DNA of 64,000 bases. Source: Candidatus Doudnabacteria bacterium (GTDB taxonomy: Bacteria; Patescibacteriota; Doudnabacteria; UBA920). Where the stretch lies: NCBI GenBank assembly GCA_023245995.1, contig JAHFJH010000003.1:1585-65584 (forward strand), read 5' to 3'. Positions 1 through 43,110 of this stretch are shown piece by piece. Position numbers and translations under genes: made by a program. Each line of letters begins with the position of its first letter. Position 1 is the stretch's first letter. A model generated the notes under the pieces. That model searched no databases. It was given only the letters and a program-made list of their open reading frames with translations, and was not told the origin of the DNA.

Positions 1-287
1 GTAAGCCGCAACGTAAATTCAGAAACTCCAAACAAAGAAAATAAACCAGCAGTAGTATATATATAAAGAGGGTTTTTATACTCCCCAAAAGCTTTAAAGT
101 ATATTGGTAAGAGTACACCATGTTCGTCACGTGCAGTATGCGCAATCAAATAAGCGTTATACCCTATTGAACTTTCATCTACATATAATCCGCGTGGCAA
201 AGTAGACAAACGCCACACGTGAACAAAAACTAAAAGTGTAAGTATAAGTGCAAGAATAAGTCGGAAAAAAAGTGAATTACCATGCAT
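1..287 (-). CDS. GT-C family glycosyltransferase (ArnT/PMT-like), N-terminal part; the 3' end runs off the window
   Basis: Minus-strand translation from the ATG at 287 gives MHGNSLFFRLILALILTLLVFVHVWRLSTLPRGLYVDESSIGYNAYLIAHTARDEHGVLLPIYFKAFGEYKNPLYIYTTAGLF. The DE..GY.AY..A....GDW-like motif and the hydrophobic N-terminus are typical of the ArnT/PMT family. It is not in the ORF track because there is no stop inside the window. Confidence 0.5.
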   Translation of the reverse strand, partial: MHGNSLFFRLILALILTLLVFVHVWRLSTLPRGLYVDESSIGYNAYLIAHTARDEHGVLLPIYFKAFGEYKNPLYIYTTAGLFSLFGVSEFTLRL

Positions 288-728: not shown

Positions 729-1916
729 CTACTTTAGTATTTTTGTAACAACACCAGCACCAACAGTTCTACCACCTTCACGGATAGCGAACTTGCCTTT
801 TTCTTCCAAGGCGACTGGAGTAATAAGTTTAATTGTTACTGTAATGGTATCGCCAGGCATAACCATTTCTGTACCTTCAGGTAAGGTTACTTCACCAGTT
901 ACGTCTGTTGTACGAACGTAAAACTGTGGTTTATAGCCTTTAAAGAATGGAGTGTGGCGTCCACCTTCTTCTTTAGTAAGAATGTAAACTTCAGCAGTAA
1001 ACTCAGTATGAGGAGTAATAGAGCCAGGCTTGGCCAAAACTTGACCGCGCTCAACTTCTTCCTTCTTCACACCGCGAAGTAGTACACCTGCGTTGTCGCC
1101 TGCAAGACCTTTGTCCAGTTGCTTGTTAAACATCTCAATACCAGTAGCAACGGTCTTCGTTGTAGGCTTGAGTCCGACAATTTCAATTTCGTCGTTTATG
1201 TTCAACGTACCGCGTTCAATACGGCCAGTTACCACAGTACCACGTCCTTCAATAGTAAAGATGTCTTCTATTGGCATTAGGAACGGCTGGTCTACTGCGC
1301 GCTCTGGTTGTGGAATGTAAGAGTCCAAAGCTTCTACTAATTTTAGAATAGAAGGTTCGCCAATTTCACTCTGATCGCCTTCCATAGCCTTAAGCGCGCT
1401 ACCACGAATAATTGGAGTGGTGGCACCTGGGAACTCATACTTGGTAAGAAGATCGCGAATCTCTTCTTCTACAAGATCCAACAATTCTGCATCTTGCACC
1501 ATGTCTACTTTGTTCATGTACACAACAATGTATGGCACACCAACTTGGCGAGCAAGCAAAATGTGTTCACGAGTCTGTGGCATAGGACCGTCTGCTGCAC
1601 TAACAACCAAGATTGCACCGTCCATTTGAGCGGCACCGGTAATCATGTTCTTAATGTAGTCGGCGTGTCCTGGACAATCTACGTGCGCATAGTGGCGCTT
1701 GTCAGACTCGTATTCAACGTGAGCTGTGTTAATGGTAATACCACGGGCTTTTTCTTCCGGGGCATTGTCAATTTGGTCATAGGCGCGAGCCTTAGACTTT
1801 CCCGTCTTTGCAAGCACGGTTGTAATGGCCGCAGTTAAAGTGGTTTTACCGTGGTCGACGTGACCAATGGTACCCACGTTTATGTGCGGCTTGGAGCGAT
1901 CAAACGCTTCTGCCAT
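729..1916 (-). CDS. tuf: elongation factor Tu
   Basis: 395 aa: [32 protein letters not shown]...DCPGHADY...NKVD. Full-length EF-Tu with the G1-G4 GTPase motifs. Confidence 0.97.
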
Positions 1917-7853: not shown

Positions 7854-8122
7854 CCCTTGAAACCTGTAAGGGTTAAACTTCCTAGTAAATGAGACCAAAT
7901 AATAGTAATTCCTTAAAGTTTCGACTCTAAGGGGCTTCCTATTCACTTGTTAAAGAAATTATACCTAAATAAGCCCAAAACCGTCAATATTGACTTTATA
8001 GTCAATATATGCTACAATATCGCATATTTGCTTGCTTATATAGAACATAGAACTTCGATCCTCAATTAAGGGGAACGAATACCTGTAAACGCCCATAAAA
8101 AGTAAGCCAGTAAGGAGGAAAC

Positions 8123-13999: not shown

Positions 14000-15658
14000 T
14001 TACTGTATACCAGACTCACTCAAGGTGCGTACACCAGCTTCGTAACCGCCAGTTTTAGCGCCTAAACAAAATAGTAATTTATACTTGTCGGTACCAGTCT
14101 GCAAATAGGTATAAGTATTTTTAGCAGGTGTACAAACACCATCCACTGGCAAGGGTGCTATTGGTAATTGTCCTATATATGTCGGAGTTAAATCCGAGAG
14201 TTTGGGCGGATAACTATTGTGATCGTTAAAATACAACTCAAGTGCAGAAGCTAATTGGCGCACATCTGCTAGTCTTTTTGCGTTCCTGGAGGCGCCTTTT
14301 GCACCCTCAATTTCTTTAGCTGTGTCAAAATAGTCTTTCGGTGCAGAAACAGTTTGGGCTTTCCCATAATCAAAAAACTCTAAATCAAAGTTAAAATTAG
14401 CACTAAACTCCAAAGCGCTTAGCAAGCTATTTATTCTATCAGTTATGGTTGCGGAAGTTAGCGGTTTGCAAGGCTTAGAATAGTCACCACACGCTTGTCT
14501 GTAACGCTCCATTTCCTTCTCACTCTCCGCCTCCATTGCTTTTGCAAAACTAGCAACAGAAGGTGCGTTACTCTGAAATACAATTTTATATACTTCTGCA
14601 TCACTCCTACCAACCCATATTTGCATGTCTTGAATTTCAAGCTTGTCTATAAGTCCATTCAAAAATGCGCGAGTGGTATTTTGAGTTTCCTTATCTTCGC
14701 TACCAAGTAACTTATCAATAAGATTATTTAGCGCGGTACGAACTTTTTCTTTTTTTATATTGGTTTTGTAGTGCAAGGTTTCAACGCCATGGACTTTATC
14801 TTTGCCAATATAGGTAGGGGTCTCCAAAAAACTTTCTTTCTTCCATTCCGTTACTAAGTCTTGCCAGTAGCGCTGATCTGACAGTTTGCTTACATCTGCC
14901 GTGCCACCCCCAACCTCCTGTAACTGCGCTAAATCTTTCGGATTTAAACTAACTTTTATCCAATCATATTTATGCGAATCTTGCACTCCCGAGGAGGTGG
15001 ACATGAGTCCAGACAAAAAAGGATTTTCCCCAATATTTACATAAAGAGCCTGCCCTACTATACGGTATTCAAATCCAGTAGAGAAACTGGTGTTTCCACT
15101 GGAAAGACTATATGTAAGCGTGCTCTCAGATTGCAACGCATCTAGACTATTTGCTCCGTTTGCGTACACTTTGCCACCAACAGCAACTTTAATATTTTTC
15201 AATACACCGCCAAAAGGACTTTCAGTTACATCACTACCCTTGTCTGTGTAATTAAAATTAAAATTAGCATGTATGGGTTTAGAAACAGTCTGACCCTGAA
15301 ATTTTGTCCAAACTTTAGAAGAACTTACCGGCAACCAAGATATAGAATACTTACCTGTATATTGAGCATAAGCCAAGCCACCAAAAGCAAAAATAACTAA
15401 TGCAATAACCGCAAACAACAAAACTCGTTTGCGCATACTTTTAACAGGAGCGCCTTCCAATGTTGACACCGGTGCAGGCGTTACAGCTTCTGGACTTGTA
15501 TGTGCTACTGCTTCCGATGTTGCTAAAGCCACAAAAGCCTCTTCTATGGCAGCCTCAGTTACTCCGGGTTGCGTACTTAGGTCGGTACGAATAGCAGAGT
15601 CGGTTTTACCTTGTGCACGAGTCTGCTTTATATAATCAACTATGTGTTGTTCGGCCAT
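14000..15658 (-). CDS. large membrane-anchored hypothetical protein with a C-terminal type IV pilin/pseudopilin-like globular domain
   Basis: Likely start is MAEQHIV at 15658, where the plus strand reads 'cat'. One TM helix (LLFAVIALVIFAFGGLAYA). The C-terminus NAKRLADVRQLASALELYFNDHNSYPPKLSDLTPTYIGQLPIAPLPVDG...YTY...YKLLFCLG resembles the GspG/ComGC-type pilin head but lacks the class-III signal. Confidence 0.5.
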   Translation of the reverse strand: MAEQHIVDYIKQTRAQGKTDSAIRTDLSTQPGVTEAAIEEAFVALATSEAVAHTSPEAVTPAPVSTLEGAPVKSMRKRVLLFAVIALVIFAFGGLAYAQYTGKYSISWLPVSSSKVWTKFQGQTVSKPIHANFNFNYTDKGSDVTESPFGGVLKNIKVAVGGKVYANGANSLDALQSESTLTYSLSSGNTSFSTGFEYRIVGQALYVNIGENPFLSGLMSTSSGVQDSHKYDWIKVSLNPKDLAQLQEVGGGTADVSKLSDQRYWQDLVTEWKKESFLETPTYIGKDKVHGVETLHYKTNIKKEKVRTALNNLIDKLLGSEDKETQNTTRAFLNGLIDKLEIQDMQIWVGRSDAEVYKIVFQSNAPSVASFAKAMEAESEKEMERYRQACGDYSKPCKPLTSATITDRINSLLSALEFSANFNFDLEFFDYGKAQTVSAPKDYFDTAKEIEGAKGASRNAKRLADVRQLASALELYFNDHNSYPPKLSDLTPTYIGQLPIAPLPVDGVCTPAKNTYTYLQTGTDKYKLLFCLGAKTGGYEAGVRTLSESGIQ

Positions 15659-26929: not shown

Positions 26930-27274
26930 TTAACTTAAAAATGCGAGCGCAGGAAACGCTACGATTATTAGTACATTAAGTAAAACCCACAGCCAAGATG
27001 TTAAGTTATTACGAGCTGACCAAAAAGAAAGCAAGAACATAAACAATCCTATTGGCACAGTCAGGTAACTTGCAATAAACCAAGGCAACCCGAAAGCATT
27101 TATAAAAGGCCAATATCCTATCGTAAATATAACCATAATTACAAATACAAAAGAAGTGGCTATACGCACTAACCATTGAACTATTTTATTTTTATCCATT
27201 TTTATTATTCCGTACGCCAGAGACTTCACTGAGCGCCTAGGCGTGTTAATTATAAAATCGGAAACTGCGCGCAC
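26930..27274 (-). CDS. hypothetical small membrane protein
   Basis: 114 aa with three hydrophobic helices. It overlaps the glyA start by 25 nt. Confidence 0.35.
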   Translation of the reverse strand: MRAVSDFIINTPRRSVKSLAYGIIKMDKNKIVQWLVRIATSFVFVIMVIFTIGYWPFINAFGLPWFIASYLTVPIGLFMFLLSFWSARNNLTSWLWVLLNVLIIVAFPALAFLS

Positions 27275-28557
27275 AAATCACGTACTAGGTTACAAATAAC
27301 TTTAATACGTTCATCTGCCTGCATGCGGGCTTTAAAGTCTTGAATATACTTTTGTCGTTCTTCTTTTGCTTCGGGTAATTTATCACTCTTTATAATCTCT
27401 ACTACTTCAGCAATCCACTCCGCGATCTTTACCATTTCATGTTCTTTAATACCACGCGTGGTTATAGCTGGGGTACCAATACGGACGCCGGAAGGATAGA
27501 ATGGACTGGGATCGTTTGGAACAGTATTGCGATTAGTTACAATTCCTGCAAAATTTAATGCAGATGCTACTAAGGTTCCTTTACCAAGTGAGTCGCCAGA
27601 AAAGTCCATTACTAGCAAATGGTTTTCCGTTCCCCCGCCAACTAGCACTATCCCCTTAGCCCTTAGCCCTTCTGCTAACACTTTGGCATTATTCACTACC
27701 CCGTGTCCATATTCTGCAAATTCTAATTGCGATGCTTCAAATAAGGCAACAGCAATACCAGCCGTGGTGTTATTATGTGGGCCGCCTTGCATGCCTGGCA
27801 TAACTGCAGAGTCTATTTTCTTTGGTAAGTCAGGGTCTTTTGCAAGCCCTTCATCTGTAACTAAAATTATTGCCCCCCTTGGGCCCCGTAGCGTTTTGTG
27901 TGTAGTAGACATTACTACATGAGCAAAAGGCACAGGGCTTGGGTGCACACCAGCAATAATTAAACCTACGATGTGCGATATATCTGCAACCAAGTAAGCC
28001 CCCACGCTATCGGCAATACTTCTCGCTTGTTCCCAGTCTAAAATAAACGGGTAGGCCGTAGTACCAAAAAATATCACCTTTGGTTTATGTTCCAAAGCTT
28101 TTGCTCGCATGTCGGCGTAGTCTATTTTTGCTTCTTCTGTAAGTCCAAACTGCACGGAGGTGTAATATTTTCCGGAAAAAGTAACACGTGGGTGCCCATG
28201 AGTTAAATGACCGCCACTAGAAAGTCCTAGACCCATAATCGTGCTACCCGGCTCTGCAAGTGCAAAAAGTATTTCGCTGTTGGCCGGACTACCCGAGTAG
28301 GGTTGAACGTTTGCATGTGGCACACCAAAAAGCTTTTTGGCACGGCCTATAGCCAGTAGCTCAATTTGGTCTACTATTTCATTGCCCTCATAGTACCGCT
28401 TACCCGCATACCCTTCCGAATACTTATTTGCCAAAACCGAGCCTACGGCTTCCCGCACAGCTTTAGACGCGTAGTTCTCGGACGGAATAAGCATAAGAGT
28501 ACTTTGTTGCCTCTCTGCTTCTTGGCCTATTAAATTTTCAATTTCTGTGTCTTGCAT
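27250..28557 (-). CDS. glyA: serine hydroxymethyltransferase
   Basis: SHMT motifs: PLP lysine context THKTLRGPRGA, GGHLTHGH. Confidence 0.92.
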   Translation of the reverse strand: MQDTEIENLIGQEAERQQSTLMLIPSENYASKAVREAVGSVLANKYSEGYAGKRYYEGNEIVDQIELLAIGRAKKLFGVPHANVQPYSGSPANSEILFALAEPGSTIMGLGLSSGGHLTHGHPRVTFSGKYYTSVQFGLTEEAKIDYADMRAKALEHKPKVIFFGTTAYPFILDWEQARSIADSVGAYLVADISHIVGLIIAGVHPSPVPFAHVVMSTTHKTLRGPRGAIILVTDEGLAKDPDLPKKIDSAVMPGMQGGPHNNTTAGIAVALFEASQLEFAEYGHGVVNNAKVLAEGLRAKGIVLVGGGTENHLLVMDFSGDSLGKGTLVASALNFAGIVTNRNTVPNDPSPFYPSGVRIGTPAITTRGIKEHEMVKIAEWIAEVVEIIKSDKLPEAKEERQKYIQDFKARMQADERIKVICNLVRDLCAQFPIL

Positions 28558-30281: not shown

Positions 30282-32753
30282 TTACACAACTAAATTCAGT
30301 AATTTATCCTGCACAAATATTGCACGCTTTACTTCACTGCCCGCAAGTGCGGTTTTTATTTTTTCATCTTCAAAGGCTGCCGACTTTACAACGTCCTCTG
30401 TCGCTCCTTGGAGCATAGTTAGCTTGCCTCGCATTTTGCCATTTATTTGCACTACCAAAGTTACCGTCTCATCTCGTACAAAACTTTCGTCCCACGCTGG
30501 CCAGTGATCTTTCTGAACAGTGTCGCTATGCCCTAGCTCCTGCCACAGCTCGTCTGCTATGTGTGGTGCAAAAGGTGCGACCAACTGCACTAAACTTTCC
30601 AAAGCGAACTGCCAAGAAGTAGACCCAACAAATCCGTGTTCTGTTTTTTCGGCGCTCAAACTATTTACTAGTTCCATCATACTAGAAATTGCTGTATTGT
30701 ATTTCAAGTTGCCTAAATCGGAAGTCACTTTTTTTATAGTCTTATGCGTTGTGCGCAGAATTATATCATTGCTAAGTGGTGACTCCTCTGCTGCCAAAAA
30801 TTCTTGCACCAGTGTCCATATGCGACCAAGAAAACGAAGTGCAGCGGGCACGCCTTGCGGGTCCCAACGTATCCATATTTCTAATGGTGCTGCGAACATT
30901 AAATAAATACGCAACGCGTCTGCTCCGTGCTGGCTTATAATTTCCAGCGGGTCCACTCCGTTACCCTTGCTCTTACTGAACATTTGTCCGTCAGAGGCCG
31001 TGACTTTACCGTTGAACAAGAATTTTTTAAATGGCTCAGCCGTTTCCAGTAAACCTTTTTTGTGGAAAAATCTAGTCACAAAACGAGCATACAACATATG
31101 GGCAGTTGCGTGGTCTGCACCGTTGTAAAAGTCTATTGGCATCCACTTATTCACTAGGCTGCTATCAAAAATTTTCTCAGAATTAGCCGGGTCAAAATAG
31201 CGCAACATGTACCAGCTACTACAAATATAGGTGTCCAAAGTGTCTGTCTCACGTTCCCCTTCTCCCCCACACTTAGGACACTTTACATGTACCCAGTCTT
31301 GAGCGCGAGCAAGTGCGCTACGTCCGTCCCCACTGGGGCTAAAATCCTTTAGCTCCGGCAACACAACCGGCAAATCTGCGTCTGGCACAAGCTGTGGCCC
31401 ACAAGTTTTACAATAAATAATTGGAATGGGCGCACCCCAATACCTCTGCCTGGAAACACTCCAGTCCCGCATTTTATATTGCACTGAACGAGTGCCCATG
31501 TTGTGCTCTTCAATATATTTTATAATTGGTTCGCGCGCTTCACCCCACTTCATTCCTACTATACCCTCTGGAGCCTGCTCCAATACACCTTCTGGGTCAT
31601 GGTGGTAACAGACTTCTAAATCTCTTACTTTTTTTGCCATGGCTTCATCTGCAGGAAACATGACTGGGCGAAGCGGGATGTTATACATTTTAGCAAAAGC
31701 AAAGTCGCGTTCATCATGAGCGCTACATGTCACAAATCCACCTCCATAGTCTGCTACAACAAAAGAAGCAATCCATATGGGTAAGTCGCCGGTACCAAAC
31801 GGATTTGCCAAATATCGGCCAGTAAAAATGCCTTCAATGTCTTTTTCAACATCAAACTTATCTTTTAGCTTACGCTTACGGATTTTGTCCACCATTTCTA
31901 AAACTGGCTTTTCGTGCTCAGTACCTTCTATAAGCTCTCGGACCATTGGGTGCTCAGGCGCTATAACTGCAAAAGTTTGAGCCATAAAGGTTTGGGGCAC
32001 GGAATCGTATGACTGCAACTCTATGCCTAAATCTTTCACTGTAAACGTAAACAACACACCCTCACTCTTACCAATCCAATTCTTCTGTGCGGTCTTTACT
32101 GTTTCCGTCCAGTCTAGTGCATCTGTTGCTTCTAAAAGTTCGTCTGCGTAGTCTGTAATTTTGAAAAACCATTGCTTCACTTCGCGCTGCACGACCTCGG
32201 GATCAGTTATGGCGTCATGTCGCCAGCATTTACCATCTATAACCTGCTCGTTGGCAAGTACGGTCTGACATTTATCGCACCACCATTGTAAGCGTGTGTC
32301 TTGATATGCTAAACCAGCTCTAAACATTTCCGAGAAAATCCACTGCGTCCATTTATAATATTCGGGCGTATGAGTTGCTATTTCCTTGCTCCAATCATTG
32401 CTCCAACCCATGGCTTGGTACTGCTTGTGGTAGTTTGGAATTATTTTGGCCATGGACTCTTGAGGCGACACTCCGGCTTTTATAGCATAATTTTCCGCGG
32501 GCAAACCAAAACTATCCCAGCCAACTGGGTGGTAACTCTCGTAGCCTGCCTGACGCTTAAAGCGTGCAAGCACATCGCTAATAGTGTAGTTCATGGCATG
32601 CCCTATGTGTATTCCTGCTCCACTTGGGTAGTTAAACATGCTCATGGAAATAAATTTTGGCTTGGAACTGCCTAAGTCAGCCTTATAAACACCTGTTTCC
32701 TGCCATATTTTCCGCCATTTTGACTCAATGTTTTTTGGATTATACTTTTTCAT
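30282..32753 (-). CDS. leuS: leucyl-tRNA synthetase
   Basis: HIGH-type motif (HIGHAMNYTISD), KMSKS (FSKSKGN context), CP1 editing domain. 823 aa. Confidence 0.95.
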   Translation of the reverse strand: MKKYNPKNIESKWRKIWQETGVYKADLGSSKPKFISMSMFNYPSGAGIHIGHAMNYTISDVLARFKRQAGYESYHPVGWDSFGLPAENYAIKAGVSPQESMAKIIPNYHKQYQAMGWSNDWSKEIATHTPEYYKWTQWIFSEMFRAGLAYQDTRLQWWCDKCQTVLANEQVIDGKCWRHDAITDPEVVQREVKQWFFKITDYADELLEATDALDWTETVKTAQKNWIGKSEGVLFTFTVKDLGIELQSYDSVPQTFMAQTFAVIAPEHPMVRELIEGTEHEKPVLEMVDKIRKRKLKDKFDVEKDIEGIFTGRYLANPFGTGDLPIWIASFVVADYGGGFVTCSAHDERDFAFAKMYNIPLRPVMFPADEAMAKKVRDLEVCYHHDPEGVLEQAPEGIVGMKWGEAREPIIKYIEEHNMGTRSVQYKMRDWSVSRQRYWGAPIPIIYCKTCGPQLVPDADLPVVLPELKDFSPSGDGRSALARAQDWVHVKCPKCGGEGERETDTLDTYICSSWYMLRYFDPANSEKIFDSSLVNKWMPIDFYNGADHATAHMLYARFVTRFFHKKGLLETAEPFKKFLFNGKVTASDGQMFSKSKGNGVDPLEIISQHGADALRIYLMFAAPLEIWIRWDPQGVPAALRFLGRIWTLVQEFLAAEESPLSNDIILRTTHKTIKKVTSDLGNLKYNTAISSMMELVNSLSAEKTEHGFVGSTSWQFALESLVQLVAPFAPHIADELWQELGHSDTVQKDHWPAWDESFVRDETVTLVVQINGKMRGKLTMLQGATEDVVKSAAFEDEKIKTALAGSEVKRAIFVQDKLLNLVV

Positions 32754-34061: not shown

Positions 34062-35507
34062 TTATTCAACCCTGGGAAAAAGTCGTGGAATCGTACCTGT
34101 AGACATGTCTTGCAATGCAATTAGTATCTTTTTAGCAGTATCGGGTAACAAAGGCTGTAAATGATAAGCAATAAGCTCTAGGTGTGCGAGTAAGTATTCT
34201 ATATCTTTTTTACCTGCTTCTGCGTCTACCTTAATCTTTTTAAATGGCTCTTCCCTAGCTATATACTCATCTACTTCTTTTACTTTGCCCCAGACCCAAT
34301 CTGCCGCCTTCTGAATTTCATAGTGTTCTAAATACGTTTTGTATTCCGCATTAAAATCTGCAATCTGCAATCTAAAATCTGCAATTCCCGCATTCGTTGC
34401 CATCTTTAGCACACGACTAACCAAATTTCCAAGTCCGTTTGCAAGATTTGCGTTATAACTTTCCTTAAACTTCTCTTCAGTAAAATCTCCATCTTCGAAC
34501 ATATTCATTTCACGAGCAAGCCAATACCTAAGTGCGTCTGTGCTATACGTGTCTACCACCTTGAATGGATCCACCACATTACCAAGAGACTTAGACATCT
34601 TCTGTCCGCCAGAATTTATAAATCCATGTATAACTACCTGCTTAGAATTTGGTAGACCTGCAGAAAAAAGCATGGCTTGCCACATTGCCGACTGCTGACG
34701 TAAATTATCTTTACCTGCAATTTGAACCCCGTTTGAATTTTCTGCTGTACCCCAAAACTGCTCAAAATTAGAAACATCTTCGGGCCAACCAAGAGTAGAA
34801 ATATAATTTACCAACGCGTCGAACCATACATACATAACTTGTGTTTCATCTCCTGGTACTGGCACGCCCCATGACATTTTTTCTTTTAGACGCGATATAC
34901 TGAAGTCTTGCAGTCCGGCCTCTACAAACTTCTTTATTTCATTGAATCTAAAATCTGGAACCACAAAAGTTTTATTGTCTGCGTAAAATTCCAACAAGTG
35001 TTGCCCATACTTAGAAAACCTAAAGAAATAATTTTCTTCTTTTCTTATTTCTATTTCTAAATTTGTATGTAGTGGGCATTTGCCGTCTACAAGCTCAGAG
35101 TCGGTTTTTTCCAACTCACAACCAACGCAATATTTTATTTCGTATTCTTTTTTGTAAATATCACCGCTTGCGTTACAGCGCGTCCAAAATTCTTGTGCAG
35201 CCTGCTTGTGATGAGCGTCTGTGGTACGAATAAAATGCACCTCTGGCAATATGCCGAGCTTTGGTAATAGAGCCTTAAAACGCGCAGCATAAGAATCTAC
35301 ATATACTTGCGTGTCCTTGCCTGCTTCAAGAGCTTTGCCATGAATTTTTGCGCCGTGCTCGTCTGTCCCTGTATTAAAAAATACCTCTTCGCCCATAAGT
35401 TTATGGTACCGTGCTAAAATGTCCGCCTCAACCACTTCCAAAGCAAACCCAATATGCGGGTCAGAATTTACATATGGAATAGTTGTTGTTATGTAAAACT
35501 TATTCAT
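34062..35507 (-). CDS. metG: methionyl-tRNA synthetase
   Basis: [24 protein letters not shown]... and [12 protein letters not shown]. Start set to the ATG at 35507; the track begins 4 codons earlier on TTG. Confidence 0.93.
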
Positions 35508-35565
35508 AAAAATAAACAAAAAGAGCTCGTTTAAGCCCTTTTAGTATAGCGGTTTTGAACATTTA

Positions 35566-41485: not shown

Positions 41486-42902
41486 TTATTTTCTCGTTTA
41501 AATAATTGACAAGTTCGTCTAAGTTTACTCGCACTTGCTCTGCGGTATCGCGGTCGCGCACAGTTACAGTATCGTTTTCAAGAGTGTCAAAATCTACAGT
41601 TATGCAGAAAGGTGTACCAATTTCGTCTTGGCTGTAGTAGCGTTTACCCACGTTTCCACGATCGTCCCATGCAACGGGAAGTAGTGAGTCGTGTGAAGCA
41701 AGCTGTGAATATATTTCCTTGGCTTTTGCAACAAGCTCGGGTTTATTTTTTAGAAGCGGAAATACCGCACACTTGTACGGCGCAAGTTTAGGTGGAAGCG
41801 ATAAATATACTCGTTTATTTTCACCATCAATTTGCTCTTTGTAATGTTCGCACAAAACAGCTAAAAATGTCCTGTCTACGCCCCAAGTAGGCTCTATTAC
41901 ATGCGGTACAGTTTTCTCCCCTGTTTCTGGGTCTGTATATTTTAGTTCTTGGCCACTAGCGCGCTCGTGATTCTTCAAATCAAAATCTGTCCTGTATGCA
42001 AGACCATAAAGCTCTTTGACACCAAACGGGAAATGGTACTCAAAGTCCATAGTGCGCTTACTGTAATGTGCTAAGTCCTCACGTGGTACTTCCAACTCGT
42101 GAATGTGCTCCATACTTAACCCTAGGTCACGGGTAATCCAACTTAAAATATCCTGTCTCCACAATTCAAAATACTCATTCCAATCTGCGTCTACAGTTGG
42201 TACTGGAATAAAGTACTCAATTTCCATTTGTTCAAATTCGCGCGTACGGAAAATAAAATTCCCAGGGGTTATTTCGTTTCTAAAAGCCTTGCCTTGTTGT
42301 GCTATGCCAAAGGGAAGTTTTCTACGCGTAGTGTCAAGGACATTCTTAAACTGCACAAACATTGCCTGTGCTGTCTCTGGCCTAAAATAGGCCACACTTG
42401 TTTGGTCTTCCGACGGACCAATAAATGTTTTAAACATTAAGTTAAATTGCTTTGCCGGTCCAAGATCGTGTTGTCTTAAATGGACTGGATCAGAGACTGA
42501 ACAAATCAATAAACCCTTTATATCTTCAGGCAAGTCTTTCTCTTTTGGAAACTCATTTGGTGATATCACCCATTTGTGAATCGCCTCTAGATGGTGGTCA
42601 GCCCTAAATCGTTGATGACATTTTTTGCATTCAACAAGCGGGTCAGAAAAAGTCGCGACGTGGCCACTAGCTTCCCAAACTTTTGGGTTCATTATTAGTG
42701 CCGCGTCTAACCCCACCACATCTTCCCGGCTTTGCACAAACCGCTTCCACCAGAGCTGTTTAATGTTATTCTTTAGCTCCACACCCAAAGGCCCGTAGTC
42801 CCACGAGTTACTCAGCCCGCCATAAATATCACTCCCAGGAAAAACGAATCCTCGGCGTTTACAAAGACTTACAATCTTCTCCATCAATTCTTGTTCTGCC
42901 AT
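41478..42902 (-). CDS. glyS: glycyl-tRNA synthetase, alpha2 (class II, eukaryote/archaeal-like) type
   Basis: MAEQELMEKIVSLCKRRGFVFPGSDIYGGLSNSWDYGPLGVELKNNIK...; class II motifs and anticodon-binding domain. 474 aa. Confidence 0.93.
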   Translation of the reverse strand: MAEQELMEKIVSLCKRRGFVFPGSDIYGGLSNSWDYGPLGVELKNNIKQLWWKRFVQSREDVVGLDAALIMNPKVWEASGHVATFSDPLVECKKCHQRFRADHHLEAIHKWVISPNEFPKEKDLPEDIKGLLICSVSDPVHLRQHDLGPAKQFNLMFKTFIGPSEDQTSVAYFRPETAQAMFVQFKNVLDTTRRKLPFGIAQQGKAFRNEITPGNFIFRTREFEQMEIEYFIPVPTVDADWNEYFELWRQDILSWITRDLGLSMEHIHELEVPREDLAHYSKRTMDFEYHFPFGVKELYGLAYRTDFDLKNHERASGQELKYTDPETGEKTVPHVIEPTWGVDRTFLAVLCEHYKEQIDGENKRVYLSLPPKLAPYKCAVFPLLKNKPELVAKAKEIYSQLASHDSLLPVAWDDRGNVGKRYYSQDEIGTPFCITVDFDTLENDTVTVRDRDTAEQVRVNLDELVNYLNEKING

Positions 42903-42904
42903 AT

Positions 42905-43110
42905 GTATTTATTATACCAATAAAAAAACTCATCTCTAAATATAATCACTTACATTTAGGGACGAGTCTTTAAGCCCGCGGTTCCACCCTGTTTACCCCA
43001 CTTAGCGGGATCATCTTTATTCAGTTTCAGCTCCAGCGTGCCACCGCCTTCATAGCTACTGTTAGTATAGCCTCCGAACTAAAGCGTGTCAAAAATTATT
43101 AAACACCCAA
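42905..43110 (-). promoter_or_regulatory. T-box riboswitch leader (glycine-specific) controlling glyS
   Basis: The minus-strand RNA contains the T-box sequence AAACAGGGUGGAACCGCGGG (consensus AAnnnGGGUGGnACCGCG). The UGGA bulge is complementary to the tRNA-Gly 3' UCCA. An overlapping terminator (ACUCGUCCCUAAAU...AUUUAGAGAUGAGU + UUUUUUU) lies directly before the glyS ATG. GGC triplets are present in the stem I region. Confidence 0.75.

Follow-up and report, generated by a model that had tools for sequence, protein, structure and literature searches.

An ultrashort T-box leader upstream of glyS in Candidatus Doudnabacteria, with a candidate minimal module for decoding tRNA-Gly

The DNA analysed here, which we call the window, is a stretch of 64,000 nucleotides (nt) from Candidatus Doudnabacteria (contig JAHFJH010000003.1), and the element in question is the leader of its glyS gene, which encodes a glycyl-tRNA synthetase (GlyRS). 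The leader lies between an open reading frame (ORF) of 175 amino acids (aa) with no known family and the 474-aa glyS ORF. All of its features are on the minus strand, and from 5′ to 3′ they comprise a promoter, a very short hairpin with a K-turn, a single-stranded linker, a Stem III, a T-box antiterminator and an intrinsic terminator (Table 1). An earlier note on this DNA had proposed a near-consensus T-box on the minus strand ahead of a glyS of the alpha2 type. The T-box sequence, AAACAGGGUGGAACCGCGGG, is present, and the gene product scores far above the cut-offs of the family models for the dimeric enzyme (NF003211, 612.9 bits against 312; TIGR00389 glyS_dimeric, 494.9 bits against 243).

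Table 1. Features of the glyS leader and genes mentioned in the text, in window coordinates.
Feature	Position	Strand	Description
ORF, 175 aa	43124..43651		no known family
Sigma-70-like promoter	43064..43092	-	TTGACA-17-TATACT; 11/12 consensus matches; -35 at 43092..43087, -10 at 43069..43064
Predicted transcription start	~43057	-	base of Stem I
Ultrashort Stem I, 29 nt	43029..43057	-	AGC-UAUGAA-GGCG-(GUGGCA)-CGCU-GGA-GCU: C-stem AGC/GCU, K-turn UAUGAA/GGA, 4-bp helix GGCG/CGCU, terminal hexaloop GUGGCA; from Rfam alignment, fold and RNAalifold
Proposed Specifier codon GGC	43040..43042	-	in terminal loop 43044..43039; U43043 before, A43039 after
Single-stranded A-rich linker, 17 nt	43012..43028	-	ends in purine string AGAUG (RRRxG)
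Stem III	42995..43011	-	AUCCCGC-UAA-GUGGGGU; z = -2.55; followed by AA at 42994..42993
T-box sequence	42994..42975	-	AAACAGGGUGGAACCGCGGG
Antiterminator	42958..42990	-	AGGG-UGGAACC-GCGGG...CUCGU-CCCU; helix A1 AGGG/CCCU, helix A2 GCGGG/CUCGU; A2-base wobble G42979.U42962
T-box bulge, 7 nt	42986..42980	-	UGGAACC; variable base A42983
Intrinsic terminator	42922..42970	-	hairpin of ~21 bp (one mismatch) + U7 at 42928..42922
Possible second promoter, extended -10	42911..42920	-	TTGGTATAAT (TGnTATAAT); ends 8 nt before the A of the ATG
glyS, dimeric (alpha2-type) glycine--tRNA ligase, 474 aa	41478..42902	-	family model scores; ATG at 42902
metG	34062..35519		46-nt gap
leuS	30282..32753		11-nt gap
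glyA, serine hydroxymethyltransferase (glycine-forming)	27250..28557	-	

The discriminator hallmarks defined in PMC7583486, which are RRRxG, Stem III, the AA that follows it and the G.U pair at the base of helix A2, are all found in the window leader. The bulge is UGGAACC and its variable base is A, as previously noted, and we propose that UGGA pairs with the tRNA's 3′ NCCA. The exact 13-mer T-box core, GGGTGGAACCGCG, occurs only once in the window. The terminator hairpin has a folding free energy of -20 to -22 kcal/mol (z = -8.9 relative to shuffles), and 12 nt of its 5′ arm also belong to the antiterminator's 3′ strand. Of the two structures the antiterminator is the weaker (-7.4 versus -20.4 kcal/mol). 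That the two folds are mutually exclusive and overlap, and that the terminator ends in seven U residues, had been recognized before; the stem, however, is of about 21 rather than 14 base pairs, and the U-tract ends 19 nt ahead of the glyS ATG. No Shine-Dalgarno sequence precedes this ATG. Of the 45 window ORFs of at least 150 aa, only 2 have a motif resembling a Shine-Dalgarno sequence no more than 16 nt from the start. Since these starts were assigned mechanically, as the first start codon after a stop, the count does no more than hint that Shine-Dalgarno sequences are little used in the organism.

The 5′ part of the leader is where it departs from known T-boxes. At the level of sequence, AGC-UAU-GAA...GGA-GCU aligns to the basal K-turn (GA motif) of Stem I in the Rfam T-box model, RF00230, but in the window just 14 nt lie between the K-turn strands, taken up by a 4-bp helix and a 6-nt loop. 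The leader has no internal Specifier Loop with an S-turn (AGAGA/AGUA), the codon being in the terminal loop instead, and it has no distal Stem I platform, i.e., neither the AG bulge nor the distal loop that form the interdigitated T-loops, a region that corresponds to 76 deleted model positions. The stretch between Stem I and Stem III consists of only 17 unpaired nt, too few to accommodate a Stem II or a Stem IIA/B pseudoknot. Compared with a glycine T-box, the part proximal to the specifier is intact, all that lies beyond the specifier is gone, and the codon has shifted into the closing loop. The element is thereby without the module that contacts the tRNA elbow and without the Stem II/IIA-B buttress, unlike every described T-box. 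The earlier note had expected Stem I to present GGC in a specifier loop; GGC is indeed presented, but by the terminal loop of a K-turn hairpin rather than by an internal Specifier Loop.

The promoter has a place in this architecture, as the predicted transcription start coincides with the base of Stem I. The distance from the end of the -10 element to the AUGA of the K-turn is 10 nt in the window and 10-20 nt in 13 of the 17 related ultrashort leaders (described below) for which it was counted, and the promoter likewise adjoins the K-turn in all six leader-bearing close relatives.

The default scan of the whole window with RF00230 returns no match. Searched alone, as a 401-nt region and with permissive filters, the leader scores 41.1 bits (E = 7e-8), far from the gathering score of 93, and a score below that threshold had been named in the earlier note as a result that would refute the T-box. 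We attribute the low score to deletion of the Stem I/Stem II region rather than to the absence of a T-box: the alignment fits well over the basal K-turn of Stem I, Stem III, the T-box and the two antiterminator helices, whereas 6 nt stand in for 76 Stem I positions and the Stem II region lacks its 40 positions. The same threshold is reached by none of 16 ultrashort loci, compared with two of four canonical glycine T-boxes used as controls (L147 at 95.7 and L169 at 101.7 bits, with L155 and L083 below it). Since canonical glycine T-boxes can thus score near or below the threshold, one could suppose that the leader is an ordinary glycine T-box with a long Stem I that was simply mis-scored, the rest of its Stem I being further upstream. 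We consider this very improbable. The promoter abuts the K-turn hairpin, so the upstream sequence cannot complete a longer Stem I or supply the platform; the K-turn strands, 14 nt apart, enclose just the 4-bp helix and the 6-nt loop, and no AGAGA/AGUA or distal-loop motifs are seen upstream of the hairpin, unlike in canonical leaders. A dedicated covariance model (R1) points the same way, scoring the ultrashort leaders at 61-88 bits, with the exceptions of L146 (54.6) and L028 (46.4), and canonical glycine T-boxes at 39-57 bits; of the two leaders held out of its training, L172 scores 67.4 and L146 the 54.6 just given. Stem III was excluded from R1 and analysed separately because its register in the MAFFT alignment was unreliable.

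The leader recurs outside the window, and the statistics below refer to a set of n = 23 ultrashort leaders, with some counts taken from 17 or 16 of them. We obtained relatives in three ways. First, a protein-guided scan gave a species-representative set of 80 loci with close GlyRS relatives, nearly all of them labelled as Candidate Phyla Radiation (CPR)/Patescibacteria, where the best GlyRS match was 76% identical and from Candidatus Doudnabacteria. In this set a T-box core is correctly placed ahead of glyS at a single locus, L028 from Magasanikbacteria GW2011_GWA2_56_11, which has the same design built from different helices (GCUGAUGA-GGG-AAGGCA-CCC-UUGGAGC, a Stem III and UGGAACC). The closest relative, L001, has its contig end inside a matching terminator. 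The other matches to the T-box core pattern among the 80 loci were rejected as chance matches by their position, and a weak model match at L004 (14.3 bits) was rejected because it is a GC hairpin that lacks UGGNACC. The leader is therefore rare within CPR, at about 1-2 of 80 species-level glyS loci, and concentrated in the clade of the window.

Second, eight close relatives with GlyRS identities of 74-77%, found by protein search and followed up on their contigs, share the gene order TGT-glyS-peptidase M16. The leader is found in six of these eight Doudnabacteria-like loci, i.e., its presence or absence varies inside an unchanged gene order. Since the nearest GlyRS relatives are all from CPR and the synteny is kept with or without the leader, nothing indicates that glyS was transferred, and the horizontal transfer of the locus that the earlier note had raised finds no backing. 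The close relatives also differ from the window in the distance from the terminator to glyS, which is 130-320 nt there as opposed to 19 nt. In L201, L204 and L205 this spacer is a common AT-rich sequence with repeated CCAAA-like units, and in L202 and L206 it holds GC-rich inverted repeats such as GUCAUUGCGAG...CUCGCAAUGAC.

Third, we scanned metagenomes with a pattern of K-turn strands 12-17 nt apart followed by a T-box core, leaving both the loop triplet and the discriminator-pairing base free. At least 101 distinct matches were found, and among the matches listed, 21 pass a filter that is blind to the loop and demands only a hairpin adjacent to the K-turn and an intact antiterminator. Fifteen of these 21 form one class with a glycine codon in the loop, a UGGA bulge and no canonical Stem I motifs upstream. 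A sixteenth member, L111, was added by eye, having missed only the strict A2 criterion of the filter. Canonical long-Stem-I glycine T-boxes that match the pattern by chance are readily told apart. Four non-glycine loci that passed the filter were left out of the class: L101, which has canonical long-Stem-I motifs upstream, L195, with upstream sequence that resembles a longer Stem I, L156, which is apparently in coding sequence, and L185.

The metagenomic members range in GC content from 26% to 58%, and GlyRS similarity is uninformative about their taxonomy. Wherever the downstream gene can be read, it is either the dimeric glyS or glyQ, which encodes the alpha subunit of the tetrameric enzyme. 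The names on close homologues placed only the glyQ subgroup, and they placed it in Negativicutes: the GlyQ encoded downstream of L104 shares 83-90% identity with GlyQ proteins that carry the NCBI labels Acidaminococcus sp., Acidaminococcaceae, Succinispira mobilis and Negativicutes. A glyQ locus (L210) whose protein is labelled Acidaminococcus sp., a genus of Firmicutes, does carry the leader, at 72.4 bits, with a K-turn strand GGAAC that puts it outside the reach of our scan pattern, where AUGA and GGAGC were fixed; a Succinispira-like glyQ locus was examined and has no leader. The presence of the leader before glyQ in Negativicutes means that the class is neither specific to CPR nor tied to the alpha2 enzyme. 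A T-box in a CPR genome had been called unusual. The leader is rare among CPR glyS loci, but the same leader in at least some Negativicutes makes it a shared variant rather than a peculiarity of this lineage.

Across the class, the codon in the loop, the gene downstream and the discriminator-pairing base all agree on glycine. Folding whole leaders by minimum free energy (MFE) and greedy hairpin parsing were both noisy, with over-extended Stem I loops and a mis-placed Stem III in several sequences, and we therefore used manual parses anchored on the codon and checked back against the sequences. The loop triplet is GGC in 20 of 23 leaders and GGA in the remaining three, a glycine codon in every case, and the three GGA loops belong to the three most AT-rich loci. 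The base on the 3′ side of the triplet is a purine in 22 of 23. The base on its 5′ side is U in 21 of 23, whereas none of six canonical glycine leaders from these data has a U there (Fisher p = 6e-5). When loops matched in length and composition are drawn at random, GG[C/A] followed by a purine occurs in 2.6 of 23 on average and in at most 9 in 20,000 trials. All 23 leaders have UGGA in the T-box bulge and AA after Stem III; the A2 base pair is G.U in 19, and RRRxG is found in 14 by automatic parsing and in 19 by manual reading. The linker between Stem I and Stem III is purine-rich and mostly 15-22 nt across the class. The K-turn strands AUGA and GGAGC recur also in the relatives that were found through their proteins, with the exceptions of GGAAC in L210 and of L204 (889..1005), where GUGA replaces AUGA and the loop is GUGGCU.

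The helices have changed sequence as the structure was kept: the 23 leaders have 19 distinct Stem I and 22 distinct Stem III helices. RNAalifold applied to a MAFFT alignment that was not fitted to any model recovers the C-stem, the hairpin helix, A1, the 7-nt bulge and A2, with compensatory changes at 9 of 16 pairs. In the alignment registered by the model, 97.0% of cells are paired compared with 79.8 +/- 1.3% in shuffles, none of 500 of which reach that value, and the covariation score is 0.50 compared with 0.16. Sliding the partners relative to each other reduces pairing to 42-58%. A model-fitted alignment leans towards the modelled structure, but the unfitted alignment agrees with it. In the Stem I hairpin, pairing of the helix is 100% and each of its three pairs shows double-sided changes; A1 is invariant, and A2 has double-sided changes at four of six pairs.

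These data also bear on whether the hairpin decodes anything at all. The leader could be a degenerate T-box that senses nothing but the free 3′ terminus of uncharged tRNAs with U73, whatever their kind, or a fixed attenuator, with GGC there by accident. The decoding module is far smaller than any that has been shown to bind tRNA, the RF00230 score is well under the threshold, and the window Stem I hairpin, taken in isolation, is no more stable than its shuffles (z = -0.55), all of which would fit such an element. It would not account, however, for a glycine codon in all 23 loops where 2.6 are expected by chance, for the synonymous GGA in AT-rich genomes with the flanking U and purine kept, or for compensatory changes that maintain the hairpin helix through 19 different sequences. 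In addition, ultrashort hairpins upstream of aspS carry AAC, together with a UGGC bulge, instead of GGC and UGGA, which hints, from the loop sequences, that the triplet changes with the regulated gene. We therefore regard a non-decoding hairpin as improbable, though less so than a mis-scored long Stem I. The claim in the earlier note of a glycine T-box in what it took for a CPR genome is borne out by the discriminator domain, the UGGA bulge, the terminator, the GGC with its following purine and the covariation over 23 leaders.

The output of the switch can be compared across the class in the same way. A hairpin with a U-tract and a 5′ arm that overlaps the 3′ strand of the antiterminator is found in 13 of 17 leaders, and in 11 of those 13 the terminator is the more stable of the two structures. 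Given that most members have such terminators, we conclude that the class acts on transcription.

We read the element as a glycine-responsive attenuator of transcription, of the T-box type, whose tRNA-decoding module is minimal, and would put the probability of that function at roughly 0.78. In the mechanism that we propose, transcription would begin at about position 43057 and the first 29 nt would form the K-turn hairpin, whose terminal loop G-U-GGC-A would display a glycine codon in a layout of U, triplet and purine that resembles an anticodon loop. The codon would pair with the anticodon of tRNA-Gly, which we take from general knowledge of bacterial tRNA-Gly to be GCC, in a kissing-type loop-loop contact that would serve as the sole identity check. 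The K-turn and the 17-nt purine-rich linker would steer the discriminator domain (RRRxG, Stem III, AA and the antiterminator) to the acceptor end, where the bulge UGGA would pair with the 3′ UCCA of an uncharged tRNA-Gly, assuming that it has the usual U73. This pairing would stabilize the otherwise weak antiterminator and allow read-through into glyS. Glycyl-tRNA, by contrast, would be sterically rejected at the G.U pair at the base of A2, so that the more stable terminator would form and transcription would stop at the U7 tract. No further contact or cofactor should be needed for the switch to sense charging. At about 100 nt this may be the smallest natural T-box, taking a co-transcriptional decision with only two short pairings, 3 bp between codon and anticodon and 4 bp between NCCA and the T-box; on that more demanding claim we see the balance as even.

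A decoding contact of this kind is not without a basis. tRNAs with complementary anticodons pair unusually stably. The GGC:GCC duplex is cited as the reason that glycine T-boxes need no Stem II (PMC7583486), which makes minimal decoding plausible here as well. The wobble pair at the base of A2 is described as the steric sensor of aminoacylation (PMC7583486), and the T-box work of PMC6197855 finds the K-turn to be critical and NCCA sensing to be retained.

Several observations nevertheless weigh against the attenuator as we have described it. The distal Stem I platform is reported to be essential in transcriptional T-boxes, for fast capture of the tRNA (PMC7583486), and once Stem II is missing, a truncated Stem I in the ileS system hardly binds tRNA (PMC7583486). 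Without some compensation, the binding of a decoding module as small as that in the window may thus be too weak or too slow for a decision made during transcription. Four of 17 leaders (L028, L107, L164 and L174) lack a clean overlapping terminator and have weaker or more complex structures in its place, and L204 has a pyrimidine, U, after GGC where a purine is expected. No tRNA-Gly gene is present in the window or in the fetched flanks. The evidence from recurrence is also less independent than the counts suggest, because 7 of the 23 leaders come from one clade, and because for part of the class AUGA, GGAGC and the T-box core were fixed in the scan pattern. Finally, TTGGTATAAT between the terminator and the ATG could be a constitutive promoter that yields a leaderless or near-leaderless glyS mRNA, in which case the T-box would possibly exert only partial or inducible control. 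An identical decamer lies 6 nt ahead of the ATG in a relative without a T-box (L208, just upstream of position 1201), but whether it belongs to the system is uncertain.

The first of these objections leads to the alternative that we take most seriously, that the T-box works but that the elbow and Stem II contacts have been replaced by something that cannot be seen in the sequence. Candidates are an L7Ae/YbxF-type or other protein that binds the K-turn, docking of the A-rich linker on the codon-anticodon helix, and slow or paused transcription, which would leave the weak decoding hairpin time to act. The barely detectable binding of a truncated Stem I alone in the ileS system, the strict conservation of the K-turn across the class and the purine-rich linker of conserved length speak for such help. 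On the other side, no such cofactor was identified in the window, a protein cofactor specific to one lineage is made unlikely by the occurrence of the class in both CPR and Negativicutes, and the GGC:GCC duplex has already been invoked for glycine T-boxes that dispense with Stem II. On balance we think hidden compensation unlikely, but clearly less so than either of the other two alternatives.

The place of the attenuator among known T-boxes can be stated by comparison with three systems. Two archetypes have been described: transcriptional T-boxes with a long, platform-bearing Stem I, and translational ultrashort ileS T-boxes from Actinobacteria, where Stem II and Stem IIA/B make up for the missing elbow contact. 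Of the former, the closest is the glyQS T-box of Bacillus subtilis, Geobacillus kaustophilus and Oceanobacillus iheyensis. The window leader shares with it GGC followed by a purine, UGGA, the K-turn at the base of Stem I, the lack of Stem II and IIA/B, a short linker, Stem III with flanking purines, the G.U at the base of A2, the terminator/antiterminator switch and a glycyl-tRNA synthetase gene as the target. It differs in having no S-turn Specifier loop, dinucleotide hinge, distal loop or AG bulge. No characterised glycyl T-box is without the AG bulge or the apical loop. Its Stem I of 29 nt also stands in contrast to the long Stem I that acts as a molecular ruler from anticodon to elbow, its class has the codon in a terminal loop with a preceding U, as counted above, and its sensing RNA is about 100 nt compared with 169-182 nt in the constructs that have been studied.

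The ultrashort ileS T-box of Mycobacterium tuberculosis and M. smegmatis (class II in TBDB) is similar in another way, with a short K-turn Stem I, a specifier in the apical loop, no elbow contact and a conserved discriminator domain (PMC7583486). Where Stem I is truncated, however, Stem II is essential (PMC7583486, PMC11297988), and the S-turn Stem II and the IIA/B pseudoknot that are required there for tRNA binding are replaced in the window by the 17-nt linker. The ileS leader also sequesters a Shine-Dalgarno sequence and so acts on translation, whereas the window leader has an intrinsic terminator, and it is concerned with isoleucine, ileS and Actinobacteria rather than with glycine, glyS or glyQ, CPR and Negativicutes. 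The glyS T-box of Staphylococcus aureus is a precedent for a transcriptional glycine T-box ahead of an alpha2-type glyS, but it reportedly has a long Stem I and a lineage-specific stem Sa insertion in the terminator/antiterminator, both of which are absent from the window leader. In the open-access literature we found no description of an ultrashort Stem I combined with a terminator and no Stem II, nor any report of a T-box of this form in CPR, Patescibacteria, Negativicutes or Acidaminococcus. By the features that define the mechanism the leader is a genuine glycine T-box, and it is a structural variant without two modules that have been regarded as necessary.

Other T-box leaders were met alongside the class. 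Two of them, L157 (~1224..1322, plus strand) and L184 (~810..905, plus strand), are those mentioned above upstream of aspS: each has an ultrashort K-turn hairpin with AAC followed by A, and preceded by U, in the terminal loop, and a UGGC bulge. They seemingly have neither Stem III nor a U-tract terminator, and a downstream GGUGCC is complementary to GGCACC of the T-box. They may represent a second ultrashort class with Asn/Asp specificity that is perhaps translational. A third, L179 (~1074..1260, minus strand), is a glycine T-box with an intermediate Stem I that has the K-turn and an internal Specifier Loop with AGUA and U-GGC-A, but a capping hairpin of only 6 bp and no AG bulge or distal loop. 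It precedes a glyS whose nearest named relatives are from CPR (Staskawiczbacteria and Parcubacteria), and its intermediate form suggests a graded series from long to ultrashort. Directly upstream of two of the canonical long-Stem-I glycine T-boxes before glyS lies a tRNA-Asn(GTT), at 7933..8007 on the minus strand in L147 and at 83..157 on the plus strand in L169.

Inside the 64-kb window, neither the model search nor the core search finds another T-box. A second core-like site at 14897 has two mismatches, which is at chance level, and was rejected. The leuS and metG genes have no space for a leader, as had been noted, and with no other T-box found by the model search, glyA is also without one.

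If the more demanding claim of a decision taken with two short pairings holds, the rule that transcriptional T-boxes need a distal Stem I platform would be overturned. A conserved, covarying and terminator-coupled leader with neither platform nor Stem II would set the minimal requirements for tRNA decoding by RNA, and it would raise the kinetic question of how so small a module can outpace RNA polymerase. At about 100 nt, such a tRNA sensor would suit structural studies and engineering, and its presence in Acidaminococcus-type genomes suggests that a culturable genus could be used to test it. T-box regulation would also exist in CPR and in Negativicutes in a form that is invisible to standard annotation. 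The TBDB pipeline used the Rfam model, and a model of truncated Stem I was searched only in Actinobacteria; with scores of about 40 bits against a threshold of 93, the class is expected to be missed by Rfam-based surveys, which may explain why we found no papers that link T-boxes to CPR. The ultrashort leaders with AAC loops before aspS hint that the hidden class is wider than glycine. For the reduced genomes of CPR, the leader documents an RNA-based circuit that would sense the supply of an amino acid.

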